From a virus: a DNA stretch of 40,625 bases. A model generated the notes under the pieces. It made no database searches and was not told the DNA's origin. It saw only the letters and a program-made list of their open reading frames with translations. Below are positions 3,704 to 36,514 of this stretch, in pieces. Where the stretch lies: UHGV virus genome UHGV-0137877. One strand, written 5' to 3'. The position numbers and the translations under genes were made by a program. Positions within the stretch are counted from its first letter, which is position 1; each line of letters opens with the position of its first letter.

Positions 3704-4288
3704 TTATTGTTTGCTTTTTTCGTTCTGGTTGATGACAAATTCAATGTAACTTTCGATCTTTGCTTTCTCGGTTTCGGGTAACAATGCGTAGCGTGAGCGG
3801 TCATAGTTGATAGTCGCAGGGTCGTGCGGGTGAATCAGTAGTTCATATCCGTGACGCCCGAATGCGGATGCAACATTCTCCAGGGTGGAAATGGAAACGC
3901 TGACCTCATTGTTTAACAGGCGGCTGATTGTCACCTGGGCGACGCCGGATGCGCGGTGAAGTTTTCCCTGTGTTGAAAGGTCGCGGCTTTCGCTCATCCA
4001 GCGTTCCAGGTTGTGAGCCGCCAGCTGACCAATGTCGCTTGGGCCGACAGGCTGAAAACCTTCCTGAGAAAGCGAGCGATCGATATCAAGCCAGTTACGG
4101 GGTTTATTGGCGGCAGCTTCAATTTTTCGCGCAACCTGGTCGCCGATAACCTTCTTGCCAAGAGCCCAGCGGTTTACCAGATTTGCCTGAGTTCCAAGTT
4201 TTTCTGCCATCCGCGTCTGAACACCATTGAATTCACGGTCGATCAAGTCGTTGAGATTTTGCCTGCGGACGTCCTGGATACTTTTCAT
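3704..4288 (-). CDS. Prophage repressor (CI-like), two HTH domains, no S24 peptidase domain
   Basis: 194 aa; N-terminal HTH (QTRMAEKLGTQANLVNRWALGKK) and a second HTH-like segment (ASGVAQVTISRLLNNEVSVSISTLENVA); divergent from the cro-like gene. Confidence 0.7.
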   Translation of the reverse strand: MKSIQDVRRQNLNDLIDREFNGVQTRMAEKLGTQANLVNRWALGKKVIGDQVARKIEAAANKPRNWLDIDRSLSQEGFQPVGPSDIGQLAAHNLERWMSESRDLSTQGKLHRASGVAQVTISRLLNNEVSVSISTLENVASAFGRHGYELLIHPHDPATINYDRSRYALLPETEKAKIESYIEFVINQNEKSKQ

Positions 4289-4343: not shown

Positions 4344-4406
4344 TTACCCAACAGGTAAATGCACCTCATAGGTAACTATCCTTGATTTTTGTTACCTTAT
4401 GGGTGA
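4344..4406. promoter_or_regulatory. Tripartite operator between repressor and cro-like genes
   Basis: TTACC-caaca-GGTAA (4344-4358), gcACC-tcata-GGTAA (4361-4375), TTACC-ttatg-GGTgA (4392-4406). Confidence 0.6.
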
Positions 4407-4442: not shown

Positions 4443-4673
4443 ATGAGCGATAACGGACATTTCGATTTCAAAAAGCACTGGCTTGCACTTACTCCGGATG
4501 AGCGTGAAGCCTTCGCACAGGAAGCCGGAACGACGAGTCACTATATCCAGACTCACTTAACAGGCAAGCGCAAAATGCCAGGTAAGGTATTGATGAATGG
4601 GCTTTTTAAAGCCTGTAAAACAAGACAATGGCTGCGCTCAAAAGCAGAACTGGCATACTTCTTCTACTCATGA
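4443..4673 (+). CDS. Cro-like HTH regulator
   Basis: 76 aa; divergent from repressor; LTPDEREAFAQEAGTTSHYIQTHLTGKRKMP resembles YdaS/Cro-type HTH proteins. Confidence 0.6.
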   Translation: MSDNGHFDFKKHWLALTPDEREAFAQEAGTTSHYIQTHLTGKRKMPGKVLMNGLFKACKTRQWLRSKAELAYFFYS

Positions 4674-14088: not shown

Positions 14089-14257
14089 GAACTGGAAGCA
14101 ATGAGTTATGCCTTCCGTGGCTGTACTGGTTTACAGCATGAAGTCATCGCAATGGCGTCCTGCTGTAAAAAGGGCAAGGGCGGTGATAGTCCTTCAAGGG
14201 AAACCATCACCGCCAAGCACCTGGAACTTCTGGCATCACGGTCCTTAGGCGTGATTC

Positions 14258-14334
14258 TGGCGTGGCATGCAGGATTCGAACCTGCGACCAACCGCTTAGA
14301 AGGCGGTTGCTCTGTCCAACTGAGCTAATGCCAC
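14258..14334 (-). tRNA. tRNA-Arg (anticodon UCU)
   Basis: 77-nt cloverleaf folded by hand: 7-bp acceptor stem, D-arm GCTC/GAGC, anticodon stem ACCGC/GCGGT with loop CTTCTAA, T-arm GCAGG-TTCGAAT-CCTGC, discriminator G, encoded CCA. Confidence 0.9.
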
Positions 14335-19545: not shown

Positions 19546-20151
19546 ATGGCCTCTGTAGTAGAGATCTGCAATCGTGCGCTGTCCAATATTGGCAACAGCC
19601 GCAGCATTAACAGCCTGACGGAAGCCAGCAAGGAAGCGGGGGAATGTTCGCTGCACTTTGAGGCCTGCCGTGATGCTGTGCTTTCTGATTTTGACTGGAA
19701 CTTTGCTACCAAACGCGTGGCGCTTGCAGATACGAGCAATCCACCGCCTGACTGGGAATATGCGTATCAGTACCCGTCCGATTGTCTGCGCATTACTGAA
19801 ATTATGCTTCCTGGTGTACGCAATCCAACAGCAGCAATGCGCGTTCAGTACGAAGTAGGTGTAGACACCAACGGAACAGGAAAGTTGATCTACACAGACC
19901 AGCCTCAGGCATGGCTCAAGTATGTCTCTCGCGTTACAGATGTGAACATGTTTGATGCCATTTTTATGGAGGCGTTGGCCTGGCGTCTTGCGGCAGCTAT
20001 TAACATGGCGCTGACTGGGAATGCAGACCTCGGTACGTTTGCCCTCAATATGTACAATCGCGTGATTCTTAGTGCTGGCTCGCATAGCCAGAATGAATCA
20101 CAGGAACCACAGCCACCGGTTGACGAGTTTACCATTGCGAGGTTGTCCTGA
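19546..20151 (+). CDS. Tail tubular protein A / adaptor (T7 gp11-like)
   Basis: 201 aa; N-terminal ICNRALSNIGNSRSINSL...DFDWNF follows the pattern recalled for gp11; immediately upstream of a gp12-sized gene. Confidence 0.55.
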   Translation: MASVVEICNRALSNIGNSRSINSLTEASKEAGECSLHFEACRDAVLSDFDWNFATKRVALADTSNPPPDWEYAYQYPSDCLRITEIMLPGVRNPTAAMRVQYEVGVDTNGTGKLIYTDQPQAWLKYVSRVTDVNMFDAIFMEALAWRLAAAINMALTGNADLGTFALNMYNRVILSAGSHSQNESQEPQPPVDEFTIARLS

Positions 20152-27930: not shown

Positions 27931-30405
27931 ATGAGACAGGAATGTATACAAGCGGTCCAGCAGGCGGCGCAGCGCACGTTAACGGCGCGAGAAATACAGA
28001 ACATTGAAGACCGCATTTATCGCAATATGCGCTCCATTGCTCGTGATGACCCTATGTCGTGGCGACAACTTTCCGAGTCAGAGCGGCTGTATCGTGCAGC
28101 ACAATTGGCATCTGAAGAATTACAGCGAGAAGCGGCATTAAAGAAACGTCGTGTGGCTCTTACTATAGCCGCACGTCAGAGATTGGATAAATTTATCAAT
28201 AGCTATCAAGGGGCTGATGGGAAACTTGGCGCTCTTAACCGTACTATTGCTTTTAATGCAGACGGTAAATCGAATTTCCTCTCTGTTGAGTCCAGAACAA
28301 AAGCCACTCGTGATTATGCATTGAGTCAATTGCAGGAGGCATTCGAAGCAGTTGATCCTCGCTTTTTTGGCCTGTTTGAAGATGAAGCGGGCGTGCGTGA
28401 CCTGGTATATGAAATGCGAGGGCAAAATACTGGCAATGCTAAAGCAAGAAAAGGTGCTAAGGCGTGGAGAGAAGTGACAGATCTACTCCGCCGCCGGTTT
28501 AATGATGCTGGTGGGGACATTGGCTATCTCGAAAACTGGGGGATCCCTCAACATCATTCTATGGAAAAGGTTGGGGCGGTATCAAAAGATAAATGGGTTA
28601 GCGATGTTATAGGTAAGCTGGATCGCAAATATTATACCCGAGCCGATGGACAACTGATGAACGATGCCGAGTTGTCTGCATTTCTTGGAGAGGCTTATAA
28701 CACGATCGCTACTGGTGGGCTGAATAAGCTTACTGATACCGGAATGCGAATTTCCGGCGCACGTGCTAACCGTGGTAATGCATCACGACAGATACATTTC
28801 AAAGATGCAGATTCCTATCTGCAATATCAGCAACTTTATGGCGATCGCTCTCTATGGGAAATCATGGTCGGTCACCTGGAAGGTATCAGTAAAGATATTG
28901 CACTGGTGGAAACATATGGCCCAAACCCCGATCATGTTTTCCGCTCCCTTCTTGATCTGGTTAAGGCAGAAACGGCAACAGCTAACCCGAGTAAAACCGG
29001 TAAAGTCGAGCGGCTGGCGAACAACACAGAGAATCTGTACAACTTTATTTCTGGAAAGACACAGCCTGTAGCGAATCCGCACATCGCGCGATGGTCTGAC
29101 AATATCCGCAACTGGCTGGTTGCCAGCAGACTCGGATCCGCGTTGCTGTCATCGTTCTCTGATCTTGGAACCATGTATCTGTCTGCGAAGGTTACCAACC
29201 TTCCAATGAACCAGTTATTCCGCAACCAGCTTGAAGCTATGGACCCAACGAACCGTACAGAACTTGCGCGGGCGCGCCGCGCTGGTCTGGCGATGGAATC
29301 TCTACTTGGCAGCGTTAACCGCTGGGCGATGGATAATATGGGGCCGTCAGTGTCTCGTTGGGCGGCAACGGCCGTAATGCGTGCCAGTGGGCTTACAGCA
29401 TGGTCAGATGCGCACAAGCGCGCCTATGGCGTAACCATGATGGGAAGCCTGGGAGAAGTAGTGTCACGGACACCAGACCTTCGTAGCCTCGATGACTCTG
29501 ATTTTCGTATCCTGAAAAGCAAAGGGATTACTGACACAGACTGGAGCGTATGGAAGCTGGCGCAACAGGAGGACTGGGGGAACGGTAATAATACGATGCT
29601 GACACCGGAAAGCATTATGCGTATCCCTGATTCAGCAGTTAAACATCTTGGTGAGCCTGAACGAGTGAAATTTGAGGCAATGCGTAAACTGCTCGGTGCC
29701 GTAACTGAAGAAGTTGATATGGCTGTTATTACACCGGGAGCACGTGAGCAACTGATAACCGGTTCTGGTATTCAGCGTGGAACATGGAAAGGTGAATTAA
29801 CGAGAAGTGTTTTCCTGTTTAAATCGTTCCCTATCTCGGTTGTTATGCGTCACTGGTCACGCGCTATGGGTATGCCGTCTGCTGGTGGGCGTGCGGCATA
29901 TATTGCGACGTTTATTGCCAGTACGACCATTCTTGGCGCTTTGTCGCAGCAACTTAACGACCTTGCGTCTGGTCGTAATCCTCGAGAGATGACAGGAGAA
30001 GGTGCCGCAAAATTCTGGCTTGGTGCTCTACTGAAAGGTGGTGGCCTTGGCCTTTACGGTGACTTTTTATTGTCAGATCACACTAGGTACGGAAGCGGCG
30101 CGCTGGCGTCGATGCTTGGCCCGGTAGCTGGTCTGGTTGATGACGTAGTGAAGATTGCTCAGGGCATACCGTTAAATGCTGTGGAAGGGAAGAGTGAGCA
30201 GACTGGTGGTGATCTGGTGAAGCTGGGGAAAGGTTTGATGCCAGGTGCGAATCTCTGGTACTTAAAGGCGGCTCTCGATCATATGATCTTTAACCAGATG
30301 CAGGAGTATTTTTCACCAGGCTATTTGCGTAAAATGGAGCAACGTTCGAAGAAAGAGTTTAATCAGACATACTGGTGGCGACCTCAGGATGTCACTCCGC
30401 AATAA
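27931..30405 (+). CDS. Internal virion/ejection protein (gp16-like, second part)
   Basis: 824 aa; GAGAGG RBS; last large gene of the ejection block. Confidence 0.45.
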   Translation: MRQECIQAVQQAAQRTLTAREIQNIEDRIYRNMRSIARDDPMSWRQLSESERLYRAAQLASEELQREAALKKRRVALTIAARQRLDKFINSYQGADGKLGALNRTIAFNADGKSNFLSVESRTKATRDYALSQLQEAFEAVDPRFFGLFEDEAGVRDLVYEMRGQNTGNAKARKGAKAWREVTDLLRRRFNDAGGDIGYLENWGIPQHHSMEKVGAVSKDKWVSDVIGKLDRKYYTRADGQLMNDAELSAFLGEAYNTIATGGLNKLTDTGMRISGARANRGNASRQIHFKDADSYLQYQQLYGDRSLWEIMVGHLEGISKDIALVETYGPNPDHVFRSLLDLVKAETATANPSKTGKVERLANNTENLYNFISGKTQPVANPHIARWSDNIRNWLVASRLGSALLSSFSDLGTMYLSAKVTNLPMNQLFRNQLEAMDPTNRTELARARRAGLAMESLLGSVNRWAMDNMGPSVSRWAATAVMRASGLTAWSDAHKRAYGVTMMGSLGEVVSRTPDLRSLDDSDFRILKSKGITDTDWSVWKLAQQEDWGNGNNTMLTPESIMRIPDSAVKHLGEPERVKFEAMRKLLGAVTEEVDMAVITPGAREQLITGSGIQRGTWKGELTRSVFLFKSFPISVVMRHWSRAMGMPSAGGRAAYIATFIASTTILGALSQQLNDLASGRNPREMTGEGAAKFWLGALLKGGGLGLYGDFLLSDHTRYGSGALASMLGPVAGLVDDVVKIAQGIPLNAVEGKSEQTGGDLVKLGKGLMPGANLWYLKAALDHMIFNQMQEYFSPGYLRKMEQRSKKEFNQTYWWRPQDVTPQ

Positions 30406-30970: not shown

Positions 30971-30992
30971 AAAAAAGCCCGCAGAGCGGGCT
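30971..30992 (-). terminator. Rho-independent terminator after the DUF2335-like gene
   Basis: AGCCCGC-aga-GCGGGCT followed by a U6 run on the minus strand; overlaps the stop codon. Confidence 0.6.
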
Positions 30993-31540
30993 TACTTTTC
31001 TTCAGGTTTATTGTCTTCAGATTTCTTCTTGATGCTTGGTTTTTGTCTAAGAACGAAAATACCAGCCACTGCAACAACTGTACCGATCACTGTGCCTGCT
31101 AGAACTTCATGACCTGTTAAACCTAATAATGTTGCACAAGCTACTGTAAAAATAGTTGCACTCAGGCCAAACCACTGCCCACGTTTATCTCTATTAATAG
31201 CCCCGTCAAGTGCCTTTTCCTCCATTTTCTGGCGGTGAGCAAACTCCTTCTCCGTCAGCTGGAAGATGCGTTCGGGGGCATCAGGTAAAATATCCTGATA
31301 CCCGCGAAGCAGATAGGGGGGAGGAAGCGGACCCTGAAACGCATGGTGAGCGACAACTATCTCCTGAATTTCAGGGCGATCAAGAACTCTTGTGAAGGCA
31401 TCTGGGTGTTGAATGATCTCGTTACTTAGCCCTTCCTCAACTTCCTCGAACTCAGTTTCTTCGTTATCACTTGGTTGCCCAATAGATTTTTGCATATTTG
31501 TCGAAGGACATTCCTTTAGCTTCTGGTTTTCCTCTTGCAT
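30992..31540 (-). CDS. DUF2335-like membrane protein
   Basis: 182 aa (167 if it starts at the internal ATG 31495); acidic N-terminus, PPPYLL...ERIFQLTEKEFAHRQ core, two C-terminal transmembrane helices, Lys-rich tail. Confidence 0.55.
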   Translation of the reverse strand: MQEENQKLKECPSTNMQKSIGQPSDNEETEFEEVEEGLSNEIIQHPDAFTRVLDRPEIQEIVVAHHAFQGPLPPPYLLRGYQDILPDAPERIFQLTEKEFAHRQKMEEKALDGAINRDKRGQWFGLSATIFTVACATLLGLTGHEVLAGTVIGTVVAVAGIFVLRQKPSIKKKSEDNKPEEK

Positions 31541-31793
31541 TTGAGTTTTTCCCTGTCACTATTGCCCATTTTCCGCCAGCAGGCGCTGCAATTTTTTTTC
31601 CGTTCTTTACTATATATTCAGCATAAACACGATTTTCTGACCGTCTGAGATCGTCTCCGACCATATTCATGTCTCTTGATATAACTTTGACGACAGAGTC
31701 TCTGTTTAAAGCCTTGGCATAGTTGGAGCCAGGAACGATACCCAAAGGGGTGCCAGACTCTATAGCCAGCTCCTTGACATATCTTCTGCTCAT
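31467..31793 (-). CDS. Small basic protein, overlaps the DUF2335-like gene
   Basis: 108 aa from ATG 31793 (GAGG RBS 6 nt upstream); overlaps the next ORF by 29-74 nt in another frame; own promoter with operator. Confidence 0.4.
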   Translation of the reverse strand: MSRRYVKELAIESGTPLGIVPGSNYAKALNRDSVVKVISRDMNMVGDDLRRSENRVYAEYIVKNGKKIAAPAGGKWAIVTGKNSNARGKPEAKGMSFDKYAKIYWATK

Positions 31794-31813
31794 ATGAACC
31801 TCAACCAATCGAC

Positions 31814-31847
31814 TTTACCAATCGGGTAATTTTAAACATGAGTATAA
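31814..31847 (-). promoter_or_regulatory. Promoter with operator site for the 108-aa/DUF2335-like pair
   Basis: Perfect TTACC-aatcg-GGTAA (31814-31828) 14 bp downstream of a minus-strand TATACT -10-like hexamer (31842-31847). Confidence 0.5.
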
Positions 31848-31914
31848 TGCTTTTAACTGCAACGAGTGTAAACAATTATTGATAATTGTAGGCACATCCC
31901 TGTGCCGCCGCCCG

Positions 31915-32625
31915 TCAGAAGAACCCTGCCTTGTCGTTGATGTACTCCGCGTGAGTCTGGATATCACGCAGGCATTTGCTCACACCAACGATGTAGCAGA
32001 ACATGCTGGTCAGCTCCGCCGCCGCGCCCGATACATCGTGCCCGTCTTCCTGCAACTGGTTCAGCAAATTCATCAGCAGTGAGTTCTCCGTCAGGCCGAG
32101 AACACCAGACGGCGAATGAATCAGGCTACGGTAGCCGGGCTTCAGTGGGGCGCTGTAGGTTTTGTTCTCTATCTTCATTGCCTGCATCACTGCTGATGCT
32201 GTGGCGTTGGCTACCTGGTCGGCAACCATCTTTATGCGTTCTTCCTGCGGGAGCGAGTTTTTAATGTAACTTCCGGTGCGGCGGATCTGAGGAAGAACCT
32301 CACCTGTAACCCATTTACGAAAGCGGTAGGGGATAGTGCCTGGTGTCACCGCATCGCGGCAGCGGAGGATCAGTGTGTAGAGGCCTGACTCGGAGATGAT
32401 GTTGATCTCTTTTACTCGGCTGTCAAAAATTGCACGATGTTCATGCCCTATGTTGAACATAGACCTTTCATCATCATCCAGTTTTTCAAGTGCTTGGGTG
32501 ACGTTTTGGATACGCAGCGCACTACAAACGTCTTGGGCTACAAACCATGGTTGGCCATCGATAATGATGGAACGGATAGGGTTAACAGATTCAAATTTGA
32601 AGATGGCAGTTTGAGCATTAGCCAT
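31915..32625 (-). CDS. Antirepressor (BRO-N domain plus Ant-type C-terminal domain)
   Basis: ORF track 31915..32640; preferred ATG 32625 after GGAGAT; N-terminal FKFESVNPIRSIIIDGQPWFVAQDVCSAL is a classic BRO-N start. Confidence 0.8.
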   Translation of the reverse strand: MANAQTAIFKFESVNPIRSIIIDGQPWFVAQDVCSALRIQNVTQALEKLDDDERSMFNIGHEHRAIFDSRVKEINIISESGLYTLILRCRDAVTPGTIPYRFRKWVTGEVLPQIRRTGSYIKNSLPQEERIKMVADQVANATASAVMQAMKIENKTYSAPLKPGYRSLIHSPSGVLGLTENSLLMNLLNQLQEDGHDVSGAAAELTSMFCYIVGVSKCLRDIQTHAEYINDKAGFF

Positions 32626-32781
32626 GGTGGTTATCTCCACTTAGTGATTTTAATCACCACCGCAACGCCAATTACTGGTGGTGAACTGGACAAGGTTGGC
32701 GTACCGGCCTAAGTGGTACCGGCGTCCTTTCGGACCCCTGCCCAGCCCACCATAATTCGGATATAGCTGTGCTTAACGCAT

Positions 32782-32803
32782 AAAAAAACCACGTCTGGCG
32801 TGG
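32782..32803 (-). terminator. Rho-independent terminator between the two antirepressor genes
   Basis: CCACG-ccaga-CGTGG followed by a U7 run on the minus strand. Confidence 0.6.
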
Positions 32804-32894
32804 TATGCGCCACTTAGTAACTCGGGACGCCAATCCCGGCACTGGATTTTGCCAGTGCTCAATTACTATGGCACAAGAGGAGTGCGATGTAAAT

Positions 32895-32909
32895 TTACCG
32901 CAAAGGTAA
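32895..32909. promoter_or_regulatory. Operator site (TTACC-gcaaa-GGTAA) downstream of the small antirepressor gene
   Basis: Perfect 15-bp palindrome of the operator family. Confidence 0.5.
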
Positions 32910-32940
32910 ATATAAGCACTCCACTTGGTAATTGCAAACC

Positions 32941-33198
32941 TTATCTGGTTTGTTTTCGTAATTGTTCGGCACAATAGTCGAGATGTGTTTGCAGATCCTG
33001 CATAGACATCTGTGAGCTGGTGACGTAGTTAATCAGTGCAGTCAGTTCGGCAAGTGGGCCATCGACATTAAATCCATCCTTATCGAGATCCCGGAGTAAT
33101 TTCATCAAGTGCGATCCCTCCACCAGTGACCTGACGCCTCCCGGCGTGTGAATCCTTTCGGTAAATCCGTCTTCCAGTGGATAGTGATACTGCTGCAT
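32941..33198 (-). CDS. Small antirepressor-like protein (Ant C-terminal domain only)
   Basis: ORF track 32941..33213; preferred ATG 33198 after GGAGAAG; roughly half its residues are identical to the C-terminal 85 residues of the 31915-32625 antirepressor (IHTPGGV...LMKLL..L...G..V.G..AELT...). Confidence 0.65.
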   Translation of the reverse strand: MQQYHYPLEDGFTERIHTPGGVRSLVEGSHLMKLLRDLDKDGFNVDGPLAELTALINYVTSSQMSMQDLQTHLDYCAEQLRKQTR

Positions 33199-33220
33199 CT
33201 TAATCTTCTCCATGCAATAA

Positions 33221-33236
33221 CTGTATATTTATACAG
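33221..33236. promoter_or_regulatory. LexA (SOS) box
   Basis: CTGTATATTTATACAG, a perfect CTGT-N8-ACAG palindrome with AT-rich centre, 8 bp upstream of the small antirepressor ORF. Confidence 0.8.
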
Positions 33237-33275
33237 TAGCAAATAATTTGTTTGCTATCCAGCACGTTTTGCAAA

Positions 33276-33347
33276 TTACCTGAAAGGTAATATCTATTCG
33301 TATTCACAGTCTTTCTATCCATATGTGGTTTTTCAGGTAATAGAATA
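33276..33347. promoter_or_regulatory. Tailspike promoter region: operator (33276-33290), ATGTGGTT (33323-33330), GGTAAT/TAGAAT -10-like
   Basis: Perfect TTACC-tgaaa-GGTAA; same layout as the 14657-14734 region. Confidence 0.55.
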
Positions 33348-33394
33348 ACCAGATATGCGGCGCAACGGGTGCTGCGACTATCTGGAGATTTAAC

Positions 33395-36300
33395 ATGACG
33401 GTCTCAACCGAAGTTGACCACAACGAATACACAGGTAACGGCGTTACGACATCGTTTCCGTATACTTTTCGAATTTTCAGAAAATCAGACCTGGTTGTTC
33501 AGGTGTCTGACCTGAACGGGAACGTAACAGAATTGGTTCTGGATACCGGTTATACGGTAACTGGGGCGGGAACTTATAGTGGCGGTTCTGTGGTTCTTCC
33601 GTCGCCGCTTGCTACTGGATGGCGAATTACGATAGATCGTGTGCTTGATGTAGTGCAGGAGACAGACCTTCGCAATCAGGGAAAATTTTTCCCCGAAGTG
33701 CATGAAGATGCTTTTGACTACCTGACGATGCTGATCCAGCAATGTTTTGGGTGGTTCAGACGTGCATTGATGAAACCATCTTTGCTTGCAAAATATTACG
33801 ATGCAAAGCAAAACAAAATTTCTAACCTTGCAGATCCATCACTTGAACAGGACGCTGTAAATAATCGCTCAATGCGTAATTATGTCGATGCTGCAATCGC
33901 CGGGGTTGTTGGTGGTTTTGGTTGGTTTATTCAGTATGGTTCTGGGGCTGTGTACCGAACGTTCCAGGATAAAATGCGTGATGCTATTAGCCCCAAAGAT
34001 TTTGGAGCTGTTGGTGATGGTATAAATGACGATTCCACTGCAATAAGCGCGTGCCTTGAAGCCTCATCTCCAGGTTATAAAATTGACGGATTAGGGCTTA
34101 CTTTTAAAGTATCAACTCTTCCGGATGTCAGCCGATTTAAAAATGCTCGTTTTTTATTTGAGAGAATACCGGGTCAGCCTCTTTTTTATGCTTCTGAAGA
34201 TTTTATCCAGGGAGAGTTATTTAAAATTACAGATACACCGTGGTACAACGCCTGGACGCAGGATAAAACGTTTGTATATGACAATGTCATCTATGCGCCT
34301 TTTATGGCTGGAGACCGCCATGGTGTAAATAACCTCCATGTTGCATGGGTTCGCTCAGGAGATGACGGGAAGACCTGGACAACGCCGGAATGGCTTACAG
34401 ATTTACATGAAAACTATCCCACAGTTAACTATCACTGCATGAGTATGGGGGTTGTCAGAAATCGCCTTTTTGCTGTAATTGAGACGCGGACCGTGAGCGG
34501 AAATAAACTGCAGGTTGCAGAGTTGTGGGATCGCCCAATGAGTCGCAGCCTTCGCGTTTATGGTGGTATAACGAAAGCAGCAAATCAGCAAGTCGCTTAT
34601 ATTCGCATTACTGATCACGGATTATTTGCTGGTGATTTTGTCAACTTCTCAAACTCTGGTGTTACAGGTGTTACCGGGAATATGACGGTGACTACTGTTA
34701 TTGATAAAAATACTTTTACAGTTACGACGCAAAATACCCAGGATGTGGATCAGAATAACGAGGGTAGATACTGGAGTTTTGGTACATCATTTCACTCGTC
34801 ACCATGGAGAAAAACCAGTCTTGGAACTATTCCTTCTTTTGTTGACGGAAGCACTCCTGTTACTGAGATTCACAGTTTTGCGACGATTAGCGATAACAGT
34901 TTTGCTGTTGGCTACCATAATGGTGATATTGGTCCACGCGAGCTTGGGATACTCTATTTCTCTGATGCTTTCGGTTCTCCTGGTAGCTTTGTTCGCAGAC
35001 GCATACCTGCAGAATATGAGGCGAATGCATCTGAGCCATGTGTAAAATATTATGATGGCATTCTGTATCTGACGACCAGGGGGACATTAAGTACTCAACC
35101 CGGTAGTTCATTGCACAGAAGCTCTGATTTAGGTACATCATGGAATTCTCTTCGCTTCCCAAATAATGTTCATCACTCAAACCTTCCTTTTGCCAAAGTT
35201 GGCGATGAGCTGATTATTTTTGGCAGTGAGCGCGCATTTGGTGAGTGGGAAGGAGGAGAACCTGATAACCGTTATGCAGGAAATTATCCAAGAACATTTA
35301 TGACCAGAGTTAACGTCAATGAGTGGAGTCTGGATAATGTAGAGTGGGTTAATGTTACTGATCAGATTTATCAGGGCGGAATAGTTAACTCTGCGGTTGG
35401 TGTTGGTTCAGTTTGTATCAAAGACAACTGGCTGTACTACATTTTCGGTGGGGAAGACTTTCTAAACCCATGGAGCATAGGGGATAACAACAGAAAATAT
35501 CCTTATGTTCACGATGGTCACCCGGCTGATTTGTATTGTTTCAGGGTGAAAATTAAACAGGAAGAATTTGTTTCAAGGGATTTTGTCTACGGAGCCACTC
35601 CTAACAGAACGCTTCCTACTTTTATGTCGACGTCAGGCGTGAGGACGGTTCCTGTACCCGTTGATTTCACAGATGATGTTGCCGTCCAGTCACTGACTGT
35701 CCATGCAGGTACATCAGGACAAGTTCGCGCGGAAGTCAAACTTGAGGGTAATTACGCCATTATTGCGAAGAAAGTACCGTCTGATGATGTTACCGCTCAG
35801 AGATTAATCGTTAGCGGAGGTGAAACAACGTCTTCAGCAGATGGTGCAATGATAACGTTGCATGGTTCCGGAAGCAGTACTCCACGTCGCGCGGTATATA
35901 ACGCACTCGAACATCTTTTTGAGAACGGAGATGTTAAACCTTATCTTGATAATGTAAATGCTCTTGGTGGTCCGGGAAACAGGTTCTCGACAGTTTATCT
36001 TGGCTCCAATCCTGTGGTTACCAGTGACGGAACATTAAAGACAGAGCCGGTCTCTCCTGACGAAGCATTGCTGGATGCCTGGGGTGACGTCAGGTATATC
36101 GCTTATAAATGGCTGAACGCTGTCGCTATAAAGGGGGAAGAAGGGGCGAGGATACATCATGGTGTAATCGCGCAGCAACTTCGTGATGTTCTTATTTCTC
36201 ACGGACTCATGGAAGAAGAAAGCACAACATGCCGCTATGCCTTTCTTTGCTATGACGATTATCCCGCAGTATATGATGACGTCATTACTGGCCAAAGGGA

Positions 36301-36514
36301 AATGCCGCTGACTGATAATGACGGGAGCATCATTGTTGATGAGGATGATAATCCAGTGATGGTAATGGAAGACATCATTGAGCGCGTTGAAATAACGCCA
36401 GCAGGATCTAGATGGGGGGTCAGACCTGATCTCTTATTCTATATCGAGGCGGCATGGCAGCGCAGAGAAATGGATAAGATAAAAGAGCGGATTCAGTCTC
36501 TGGAAGAACGTTAA
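33395..36514 (+). CDS. Tailspike: endosialidase with gp17-like N-terminal anchor and C-terminal self-cleaving chaperone domain
   Basis: 1039 aa; N-terminus resembles the particle-binding domain of T7 gp17; two Asp-box motifs (SGDDGKTW, SSDLGTSW); C-terminal NPVVTSDGTLKTEP...HHGVIAQQLRDV resembles S74-type chaperone domains. Confidence 0.75.
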   Translation: MTVSTEVDHNEYTGNGVTTSFPYTFRIFRKSDLVVQVSDLNGNVTELVLDTGYTVTGAGTYSGGSVVLPSPLATGWRITIDRVLDVVQETDLRNQGKFFPEVHEDAFDYLTMLIQQCFGWFRRALMKPSLLAKYYDAKQNKISNLADPSLEQDAVNNRSMRNYVDAAIAGVVGGFGWFIQYGSGAVYRTFQDKMRDAISPKDFGAVGDGINDDSTAISACLEASSPGYKIDGLGLTFKVSTLPDVSRFKNARFLFERIPGQPLFYASEDFIQGELFKITDTPWYNAWTQDKTFVYDNVIYAPFMAGDRHGVNNLHVAWVRSGDDGKTWTTPEWLTDLHENYPTVNYHCMSMGVVRNRLFAVIETRTVSGNKLQVAELWDRPMSRSLRVYGGITKAANQQVAYIRITDHGLFAGDFVNFSNSGVTGVTGNMTVTTVIDKNTFTVTTQNTQDVDQNNEGRYWSFGTSFHSSPWRKTSLGTIPSFVDGSTPVTEIHSFATISDNSFAVGYHNGDIGPRELGILYFSDAFGSPGSFVRRRIPAEYEANASEPCVKYYDGILYLTTRGTLSTQPGSSLHRSSDLGTSWNSLRFPNNVHHSNLPFAKVGDELIIFGSERAFGEWEGGEPDNRYAGNYPRTFMTRVNVNEWSLDNVEWVNVTDQIYQGGIVNSAVGVGSVCIKDNWLYYIFGGEDFLNPWSIGDNNRKYPYVHDGHPADLYCFRVKIKQEEFVSRDFVYGATPNRTLPTFMSTSGVRTVPVPVDFTDDVAVQSLTVHAGTSGQVRAEVKLEGNYAIIAKKVPSDDVTAQRLIVSGGETTSSADGAMITLHGSGSSTPRRAVYNALEHLFENGDVKPYLDNVNALGGPGNRFSTVYLGSNPVVTSDGTLKTEPVSPDEALLDAWGDVRYIAYKWLNAVAIKGEEGARIHHGVIAQQLRDVLISHGLMEEESTTCRYAFLCYDDYPAVYDDVITGQREMPLTDNDGSIIVDEDDNPVMVMEDIIERVEITPAGSRWGVRPDLLFYIEAAWQRREMDKIKERIQSLEER

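Follow-up and report, generated by a model that had tools for sequence, protein, structure and literature searches.

Antirepression of the immunity repressor Rep by the small protein Ant in Salmonella phage SPC32H was reportedly described by Kim & Ryu 2013 in J Virol 87:11775 and by Kim et al. 2016 in PNAS, with structures 5D50 and 5D4Z. The Rep/Ant switch is therefore already known, as published for that phage (Kim & Ryu 2013; Kim et al. 2016). In SPC32H, Ant is produced upon SOS induction and self-cleavage of LexA, and it blocks the repressor through protein-protein contact (PMC7380047). The DNA-binding form of SPC32H Rep is a tetramer, which is broken up by an Ant tetramer binding two Rep dimers (PMC9638917); Ant makes contact with the C-terminal tetramerisation domain of Rep (PMC9986798). 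The orthologous Ant/Rep mechanism is also treated in bioRxiv 10.1101/2025.11.27.690993. Gifsy prophages are likewise SOS-induced through a LexA-repressed antirepressor, not through repressor cleavage (Lemire et al. 2011, PMC3121763, per PMC7380047). Gifsy-1 also has a locus ordered isrK - STnc1160/orf45 - anrP, and its AnrP antirepressor induces the prophage (PMC4825925).

We analysed a stretch of viral DNA of 40,625 bp, the whole of which we call the window. The window is an E. coli prophage of the epsilon15/phiV10/SPC32H-like type (Uetakevirus). Its region 31800-33400 (1.6 kb) matched Uetakevirus records in a phage collection, including phiV10, TL-2011b, SPC32H and epsilon15, and sequence from this region is present in 549 of 5,426 complete E. 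coli genomes. The tailspike of the window is of the K1-capsule endosialidase type, and the prophage was found in blood and CSF isolates. Judging from its sequence, the window very probably carries a switch that works as in SPC32H, with an ant gene repressed by LexA and an Ant product that inactivates a Rep unable to cleave itself.

The LexA box, the small ant gene and Rep

A sequence search of the window located CTGTATATTTATACAG at 33221-33236, the CTGT-N8-ACAG core of a LexA operator. It lies in the 180 bp that separate ant from the divergent tailspike gene, and around it we mapped the following features.

33219-33238, minus strand: LexA operator (SOS box), with its core at 33221-33236, agreeing with the consensus at 18/20 positions and aligned with boxes of related phages
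33233-33261, minus strand: candidate ant promoter with recurrent hexamers, -35-like TGGATA (33256-33261), a 17-bp spacer and -10-like TACTGT (33233-33238)
33275-33291, no strand assigned: palindrome ATTACCTGAAAGGTAAT, putative Rep operator, with half-sites invariant in four phages and a repressor site in the epsilon15 annotation
32941-33198, minus strand: ant, encoding an 85-aa antirepressor, from matches to PDB 5D50 chain E, SPC32H Ant and PHROG 450

The 20-mer of the box reads AACTGTATATTTATACAGTA on the plus strand and TACTGTATAAATATACAGTT in the sense of ant, and the 18 agreements are with the E. coli LexA consensus TACTGTATATATATACAGTA. Only one site within three mismatches of this 20-mer consensus occurs in the whole window, namely the ant box, and none of 100 dinucleotide-preserving shuffles of the window yielded such a site. 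The core alone is weak evidence, since the bare CTGT-N8-ACAG motif was observed three times in the window against 0.69 expected; the other two cores (at 14121 and 18669) have G+C-rich spacers. A first-pass annotation of this DNA had described the LexA box as perfect, which is correct for the core match, although the box is not a perfect palindrome.

That annotation also put the box 8 bp upstream of the Ant-like open reading frame. We measured 7 nt from the box end to the first in-frame ATG, at 33213, and 22 nt to ATG 33198, the likelier start of the gene. ATG 33213 opens the longest ant reading frame (90 aa), but it overlaps the Shine-Dalgarno GGAG of ant at 33208-33211. In the alignment of divergent loci, the Klebsiella homologue lacks this upstream ATG and retains the GGAG. 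ATG 33198, giving 85 aa, corresponds to the start annotated and crystallised for SPC32H Ant. On the other side, the tailspike ATG is 159 nt from the box.

The 85-aa protein matched PDB 5D50 chain E, "Anti-repressor protein", over residues 2-84 (E = 4e-47), and is 88.2% identical to the crystallised Ant of SPC32H (∼86 aa). It also matched PHROG 450 at 9e-48. Small Ant homologues number 136 in Enterobacteriaceae. The SPC32H record labels the orthologous genes ant and rep; PHROGs labels the Ant family "unknown function", the RefSeq label is "hypothetical protein", and no Ant family model was found in Pfam or NCBIfam.

A consensus promoter scan gave no ant promoter and no strong sigma-70 consensus in front of ant. 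We infer that TGGATA-17-TACTGT is the ant promoter, since the same hexamers and spacing were found in nine of 12 divergent loci, the remaining three showing TGGAAG or TGGAAA followed by TATATG, one base out of register. These hexamers are weak, matching consensus at 7 of 12 positions, which explains why the scan missed them. Other placements of -35 and -10, made by eye, were dropped because they are not conserved between phages. The -10-like TACTGT makes up bases 1-6 of the LexA 20-mer, and with the -10 inside the box, bound LexA would be expected to occlude both the -10 and the start site, which is predicted near 33225. The palindrome at 33275-33291 is 14 bp upstream of the candidate -35, still within the ant-tailspike intergenic region. 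This position just upstream of the candidate ant promoter hints at an additional layer of control; the palindrome may act on ant, on the tailspike gene or in looping.

Alignment of the ant-tailspike intergenic region pairs the window box with CTGTATGTTTATACAG in SPC32H and epsilon15 and with CTGTGTATTTATACAG in phiV10, and the window is colinear with these three phages from gene order down to the ribosome-binding site, the start codon and the place of the box. We extended the comparison in a census of 93 loci encoding small Ant, of which two are truncated by the end of a contig, in one case at a sequencing adapter. A LexA-type box was present 19-25 nt before the ATG in 90 of the 91 assessable loci, in about ten genera, a count to which 80 nearly identical IMG/VR loci contribute numbers and little diversity, the diversity coming from eight genome loci. 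In 86 of the 91 the CTGT-N8-ACAG core is complete and ends 21-25 nt upstream of the ATG. Four more have seven of the eight core bases, these being the SPC32N mutant and loci from Kluyvera, Klebsiella and Superficieibacter with ATGT, and in a single locus the left half of the box has been swapped for unrelated sequence. The box is retained despite diverged flanks in Citrobacter, Klebsiella, Kluyvera, Scandinavium, Buttiauxella and others.

A 1,064-bp comparison of SPC32H with SPC32N shows just two differences. One of them is a G>T change at record position 19960, which turns CTGT into CTTT within the aligned box. Kim & Ryu 2013 are said to have traced constitutive Ant production to one altered base in the LexA site, and the CTGT>CTTT difference agrees with that account.

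The first-pass annotation had further remarked on a module placed between the ejection genes and the tailspike. The position is as described but is nothing special, because the ant homologues of SPC32H, epsilon15 and phiV10 also follow the genes for large virion-internal proteins and diverge from the tailspike gene. A location next to the tailspike is thus the norm for the family.

The proposed target of Ant is encoded at the other end of the window, next to a pair of palindromes.

3704-4288, minus strand: rep, encoding a 194-aa immunity repressor, the presumed Ant target, from its match to 5D50 chain A and HTH-only Pfam matches
4344-4406, no strand assigned: two TTACC-N5-GGTAA palindromes, putative Rep operators, between rep and a divergent cro-like gene (4443-4673)

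Rep matched PDB 5D50 chain A, "Repressor", over its full length (E = 3.5e-42), and its C-terminal half matched 5D4Z (3.6e-20). Pfam returned HTH-type matches only (HTH_3/HTH_26) and no Peptidase_S24 autocleavage domain, which bears out the earlier statement that this repressor has no such domain. Identity with SPC32H Rep is 44.3% overall, with 52% over the first 75 residues and 41% over the C-terminal, Ant-binding half. With Rep so diverged, it is from homology that we infer that the Ant of the window binds this Rep.

We counted 13 TTACC-N5-GGTAA sites where 0.6 would be expected in the window (0/100 shuffles). They are found in the gap that separates rep from the cro-like gene, on the downstream side of rep and before several other transcription units, at positions that are syntenic in SPC32H and epsilon15. 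The epsilon15 record marks the equivalent palindromes as "protein_bind: repressor". These palindromes are likely to be the operators of Rep.

The isrK/C4 cassette and a second Ant-domain gene

Downstream of ant, on the same strand, we mapped a second putative antirepressor gene preceded by an RNA cassette.

32895-32937, minus strand: cassette promoter, TTGCAA-17-TATATT (32937 to 32909), from a promoter scan and palindrome search
32782-32871, minus strand: IsrK-like RNA, or a1b1 target element, from Rfam isrK and the presence of a1, b1 and an intrinsic terminator
32674-32757, minus strand: C4-type antisense RNA, from Rfam C4 and its loops b' and a'
32637-32671, minus strand: downstream C4 targets a2 (TTGGCGT, 32665-32671) and b2 (CTAAGTGG, 32637-32644), exact complements
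31915-32625, minus strand: gene for a 236-aa Bro-N::Ant-like protein, the second putative antirepressor, from Pfam Bro-N, similarity to Ant and PHROG matches

The -10 of the cassette promoter runs into a TTACC-N5-GGTAA palindrome, TTACCGCAAAGGTAA (32895-32909). This palindrome stands at the same position, between variable flanks, in all seven genera aligned, with one half-site altered in Kluyvera. The IsrK-like element matched Rfam isrK (RF01394) at 32782-32858 over the full length of the model, with 67.2 bits against a gathering score of 50, and c4-a1b1 (RF03163) with 40.6 bits, below the gathering score of 46.7. It contains a1 (TTGGCGT, 32827-32833), b1 (CTAAGTGG, 32810-32817) and an intrinsic terminator (32788-32804) that is the first terminator downstream of ant. 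The antisense RNA matched Rfam C4 (RF01695) at full length, model positions 1-87, with 66 bits against a gathering score of 45; its loop b' is CCACTTAG (32709-32716) and its a' is ACGCCAA (32696-32702). The a' and b' loops have exact complements of 7 and 8 nt both upstream (a1/b1) and downstream (a2/b2), and b2 overlaps the GGAG ribosome-binding site of the 236-aa gene.

Extent of pairing was evaluated by duplex energy and by covariation. The duplex of C4 with the a2/b2 segment was computed at -39.3 kcal/mol against -28.2 ± 4.6 for shuffles, a value reached by 4 of 300. The duplex with the a1/b1 segment, at -51.2 against -47.0 ± 5.6, was indistinguishable from shuffles (69 of 300 reached it), so the case for pairing there is made by the exact motifs and by covariation. 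Across seven genera, 95.2% of the a1-a' and b1-b' cells are paired and six pairs show compensatory changes, a level reached by none of 500 shuffles, while slid controls pair at 34-50%. All three motif sets co-vary across these genera, with three a-types, four b-types and one compensated one-base insertion. The vB_EcoP_ZX5 record has an "ash family protein" ORF annotated across the C4 RNA position. We considered it as a conserved small ORF, an analogue of orf45/icd, and rejected it because the reading frame is not preserved in the window.

The 236-aa gene starts at ATG 32625, with GGAG 7 nt upstream. The N-terminal half of its product matched Pfam Bro-N (1e-19), and the C-terminal 75 residues are homologous to small Ant (42% identity over 74 aa, E = 5e-16). 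The protein also matched PHROG 450 at 8e-36 (residues 153-234) and PHROG 130, "anti-repressor Ant", at 1e-56. A tblastn search with the 236-aa protein recovered mostly the ubiquitous Bro-N half. The first-pass annotation had counted this gene as an ant gene, and it is indeed a real gene with an Ant-like domain; the 20-mer scan of the window, however, found no LexA-like site before it, and it has the isrK/C4 cassette instead. Of the 26 residues invariant in the Ant family, the fused domain has nine altered, and it may therefore act on another target than small Ant.

In the census, the second gene was present in 76 of 93 loci. The cassette accompanies it in every one of these and is missing from every locus without it; SPC32H, epsilon15 and several other loci have small ant alone, with no cassette. 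Conservation is far stricter for small ant and its box than for the second gene. The putative RNA-controlled second antirepressor is built from known parts (Rfam families, P1/P7 immI, Gifsy-1 isrK) in an arrangement that is not annotated in the records inspected; in the SF-468 RefSeq genome, for example, the isrK/C4 cassette and its putative antirepressor lack annotation.

The proposed switch and its alternatives

In a lysogen, host LexA bound at 33219-33238 would cover the -10 (TACTGT) and the start region and so keep ant silent, while Rep, which has no self-cleavage domain, would stay bound to the TTACC-N5-GGTAA operators of the early promoters and of others. Upon DNA damage, RecA would be activated and LexA would cleave itself, whereupon the 85-aa Ant would be made. 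Ant would then bind Rep and remove it from the DNA, and the lytic genes would be expressed. For LexA control, the failure of Rep to cleave itself and the Ant-Rep complex, this scheme draws on the literature on the SPC32H orthologues and applies to the window by analogy. The first-pass annotation had proposed induction through an SOS-controlled antirepressor in place of repressor self-cleavage, and the matches to both chains of 5D50, the homologous box and the SPC32N change support that proposal.

Three other accounts of the locus have to be weighed against this one. That the box arose by chance as an A+T-rich palindrome, or is a relic without function, with ant controlled in some other way, is scarcely credible: this view can draw on the threefold occurrence of the bare core where 0.69 is expected, but against it stand the 18/20 agreement of the 20-mer, unmatched in 100 shuffles, the fixed distance kept in about ten genera while the flanks diverged, and the SPC32N difference falling in the same box. 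A functional box in a 180-bp divergent region might instead serve mainly the tailspike/late unit, or both directions, and not ant. We consider this very improbable, as 22 nt separate the box from the ant start but 159 nt from the tailspike ATG, a distance that also takes in a putative Rep operator and a block conserved in its own right. Moreover, the spacing conserved across genera is that from the box to the ribosome-binding site and ATG of ant, and the published SPC32H data tie the box to ant.

The other alternative concerns which antirepressor matters most. With a second Ant-domain protein encoded 0.3 kb downstream under different control, induction may not depend on small Ant, or not on it alone. 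The main antirepressor could even be the Bro-N::Ant-like protein under isrK/C4, leaving the LexA-controlled ant as a modulating or redundant gene. Its Ant domain is homologous, its gene occurs in 76/93 loci, and Gifsy-1 AnrP, which lies behind the same RNA leader, induces its prophage (PMC4825925). SPC32H, epsilon15 and several other loci, however, contain small ant but neither the second gene nor the cassette; small ant, with its box, is by far the more strictly conserved of the two; and 9/26 of the invariant Ant residues are changed in the fused domain. We therefore judge a leading role for the Bro-N fusion improbable, and prefer LexA-controlled small Ant acting on Rep as the inducing switch.

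The two antirepressors may nonetheless be connected. A terminator scan found none in the stretch from the ant stop codon to the IsrK-like element, so ant transcripts should carry the a1/b1 element at their 3' end. This raises the possibility, which we put forward tentatively and consider rather doubtful, of a two-stage relay, in which LexA-controlled ant would act first and translation of the Bro-N-fused Ant-domain protein would be unlocked afterwards. The a1/b1-bearing 3' tail of SOS-induced ant transcripts would serve as a decoy for the C4 antisense RNA, and the cassette promoter, with its operator, would be freed once Rep is removed; together, decoy and opened promoter would unlock translation of the 236-aa protein. 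If the relay were true, the covarying C4 loop and target variants, in contrast to a single invariant operator sequence, would define P1/P7-like immI specificity groups among Uetakeviruses.

Recognising the Ant switch predicts that these prophages are inducible by SOS-triggering agents. There is little new in the switch as such, since published work on a phage of the same genus already covers how it operates, what the complex looks like and what the LexA box does. The practical value of the finding is in annotation, and as a discovery it matters little. The isrK/C4 cassette is the only part that might repay more work.

Comparison with known systems

SPC32H and the window belong to the same genus (Uetakevirus) and share an orthologous Ant, the same Rep architecture and a homologous LexA box positioned over the candidate ant promoter. 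Gene order is also the same, with virion-internal genes, ant leftward and the tailspike gene rightward, and the putative operator half-sites are identical and syntenic. The window differs in its host, E. coli, in its K1 endosialidase tailspike, in a Rep diverged to 44% identity, and in a box nearer to the consensus (18/20, against 17/20 in SPC32H). Furthermore, ant of the window is followed not by a terminator but by the isrK/C4 cassette and the Bro-N-fused gene, both of which SPC32H lacks.

Phage 186 resembles the window in mechanism and in promoter geometry. According to its annotation (U32222.1), its p95 promoter is LexA-repressed and the Tum product inactivates a non-cleavable immunity repressor. 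The -10 of the experimentally annotated p95, TACTGT at 29044-29049, lies inside the LexA site at 29044-29063 as the first six bases of the 20-mer, just as in the window, and this site, TACTGTATGTTTATACAGTA, is letter-for-letter the epsilon15 box. The virion of 186 is instead that of a P2-like myovirus, and its module has another genomic position. Tum and Ant showed no significant similarity in a pairwise BLASTP comparison (16.5 bits, E = 0.06), and tblastn found no Ant or Rep homologue in the 186 genome (Ant best E = 1.9).

The Gifsy prophages share with the window SOS induction through a LexA-repressed antirepressor, but are lambdoid siphoviruses. No Ant or Rep homologue was detectable by tblastn in the Gifsy-1 genome (Ant best E = 2.7). 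We also considered Gifsy-1 AnrP as a carrier of an Ant-like domain and discarded the idea, as AnrP has no similarity to Ant or to the 236-aa protein. The first-pass comparison with Gifsy and 186 Tum therefore holds for the mechanism but not for descent: on sequence comparison, Tum and the Gifsy antirepressors are analogues of Ant, not relatives.

For the cassette alone, the likeness is to Gifsy-1 and to the immI regions of P1 and P7 (c4 - icd - ant), which have the same succession of promoter, a1/b1 with terminator, C4, a2/b2 and antirepressor. In Gifsy-1, the three Rfam elements of the window cassette precede anrP in identical order. Between P1 and P7, C4 loop and target sequences covary, as they do in the window cassette. 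The window departs from these systems in its protein, a Bro-N::Ant-domain fusion unrelated to AnrP, in having no conserved ORF of the icd/orf45 type, and in the placement of its cassette directly downstream of a LexA-controlled ant, with the phage's own putative operator palindrome at the promoter.

P22, a temperate podovirus, has its antirepressor module, immI (mnt-arc-ant, with sar RNA), between the ejection-protein genes and the tailspike, and the module of the window occupies a similar place. P22 ant, however, is controlled by Mnt, Arc and sar RNA and not by LexA, and the P22 c2 repressor is RecA-cleavable.

Antirepressor genes and control cassette

Two further features on the minus strand accompany the small ant gene.

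31915-32625 (-): 236-aa protein, a fusion of a Bro-N domain and an Ant-like domain
32637-32937 (-): complete control cassette of the P1/Gifsy-1 type

The Ant-like domain of the 236-aa protein shares 42% identity with small Ant, and given this two-domain architecture, small Ant has the appearance of a larger antirepressor's C-terminal domain, copied as a protein standing by itself. Of the 93 loci encoding small Ant, 76 carry the two genes in tandem.

The cassette has the layout known from P1 and Gifsy-1. In order, its parts are a promoter carrying the operator palindrome, the IsrK-like a1/b1 RNA with its terminator, a C4 antisense RNA, and the a2/b2 targets, which cover the ribosome-binding site of the next gene. 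Its loop and target sequences covary among the seven genera compared. We found no annotation of the cassette in the RefSeq and phage records inspected. In phage vB_EcoP_ZX5 (L097:1779-1892), the position matching the C4 RNA is annotated instead as a 37-aa "ash family protein" ORF; its reading frame is not kept in the window, so the ORF is probably the RNA gene miscalled as a protein. Small ant itself is labelled "hypothetical protein" in RefSeq (E. coli SF-468).

Variants of the LexA box

The identical LexA 20-mer, TACTGTATGTTTATACAGTA, occurs in the p95 promoter of phage 186 (L096:29044-29063) and in front of gp19 (ant) of epsilon15 (L005:19841-19860), even though the two phages are unrelated, as are the proteins under its control. 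The most distant Ant homologues, those of Superficieibacter, Kluyvera and Klebsiella pneumoniae ATCC 13883 (L008, L011 and L012), have ATGT rather than CTGT as the left arm (TATATGTATATATATACAGTA). This change turns the -10 element into TATATG, and may trade a weaker LexA site for a better promoter. At one locus only, in IMGVR_UViG_2563366870_000004 (L017:2440-2500), the left half of the box and everything upstream are replaced by unrelated sequence; an insertion or rearrangement may have uncoupled ant from LexA there.

Tailspike and tRNA genes

33395-36514 (+): tailspike
14258-14334 (-): tRNA-Arg, anticodon TCT

In the tailspike, an epsilon15-type N-terminus is joined to an endosialidase (K1 polysialic-acid depolymerase), which is complete, with an S74 chaperone domain at the C-terminus. 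Close relatives in E. coli have GH28 or other tailspikes at this position. Matching prophages occur, among other hosts, in isolates from blood and cerebrospinal fluid. The tRNA-Arg gene lies where SPC32H has its annotated tRNA-Arg.

Putative Rep operators

The palindrome TTACC-N5-GGTAA was found 13 times in the window, against 0.6 expected, and precedes most transcription units, structural ones included.

3570, 3632, 4344, 4392, 4729, 6631, 6693, 11488, 11506, 14657, 31815, 32895, 33276: TTACC-N5-GGTAA palindromes
30992-31872 (-): possible accessory unit downstream of the 236-aa protein gene
31793: likely start ATG of a ~108-aa protein gene (PHROG 10654, unknown function), behind the palindrome at 31815-31829
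Second gene behind that palindrome: DUF2335 membrane protein (PHROG 3996, "moron")

Downstream of the 236-aa protein gene, another promoter-like site (TTTACA-17-CATTAT) is followed by the palindrome at 31815-31829, and the unit may be an accessory one controlled by Rep.

Palindrome positions are syntenic with those of SPC32H and epsilon15. Rep is only 44% identical to its SPC32H homologue, whereas Ant is 88% identical; despite this divergence of Rep, the palindrome half-sites are identical in the window phage, SPC32H and epsilon15.
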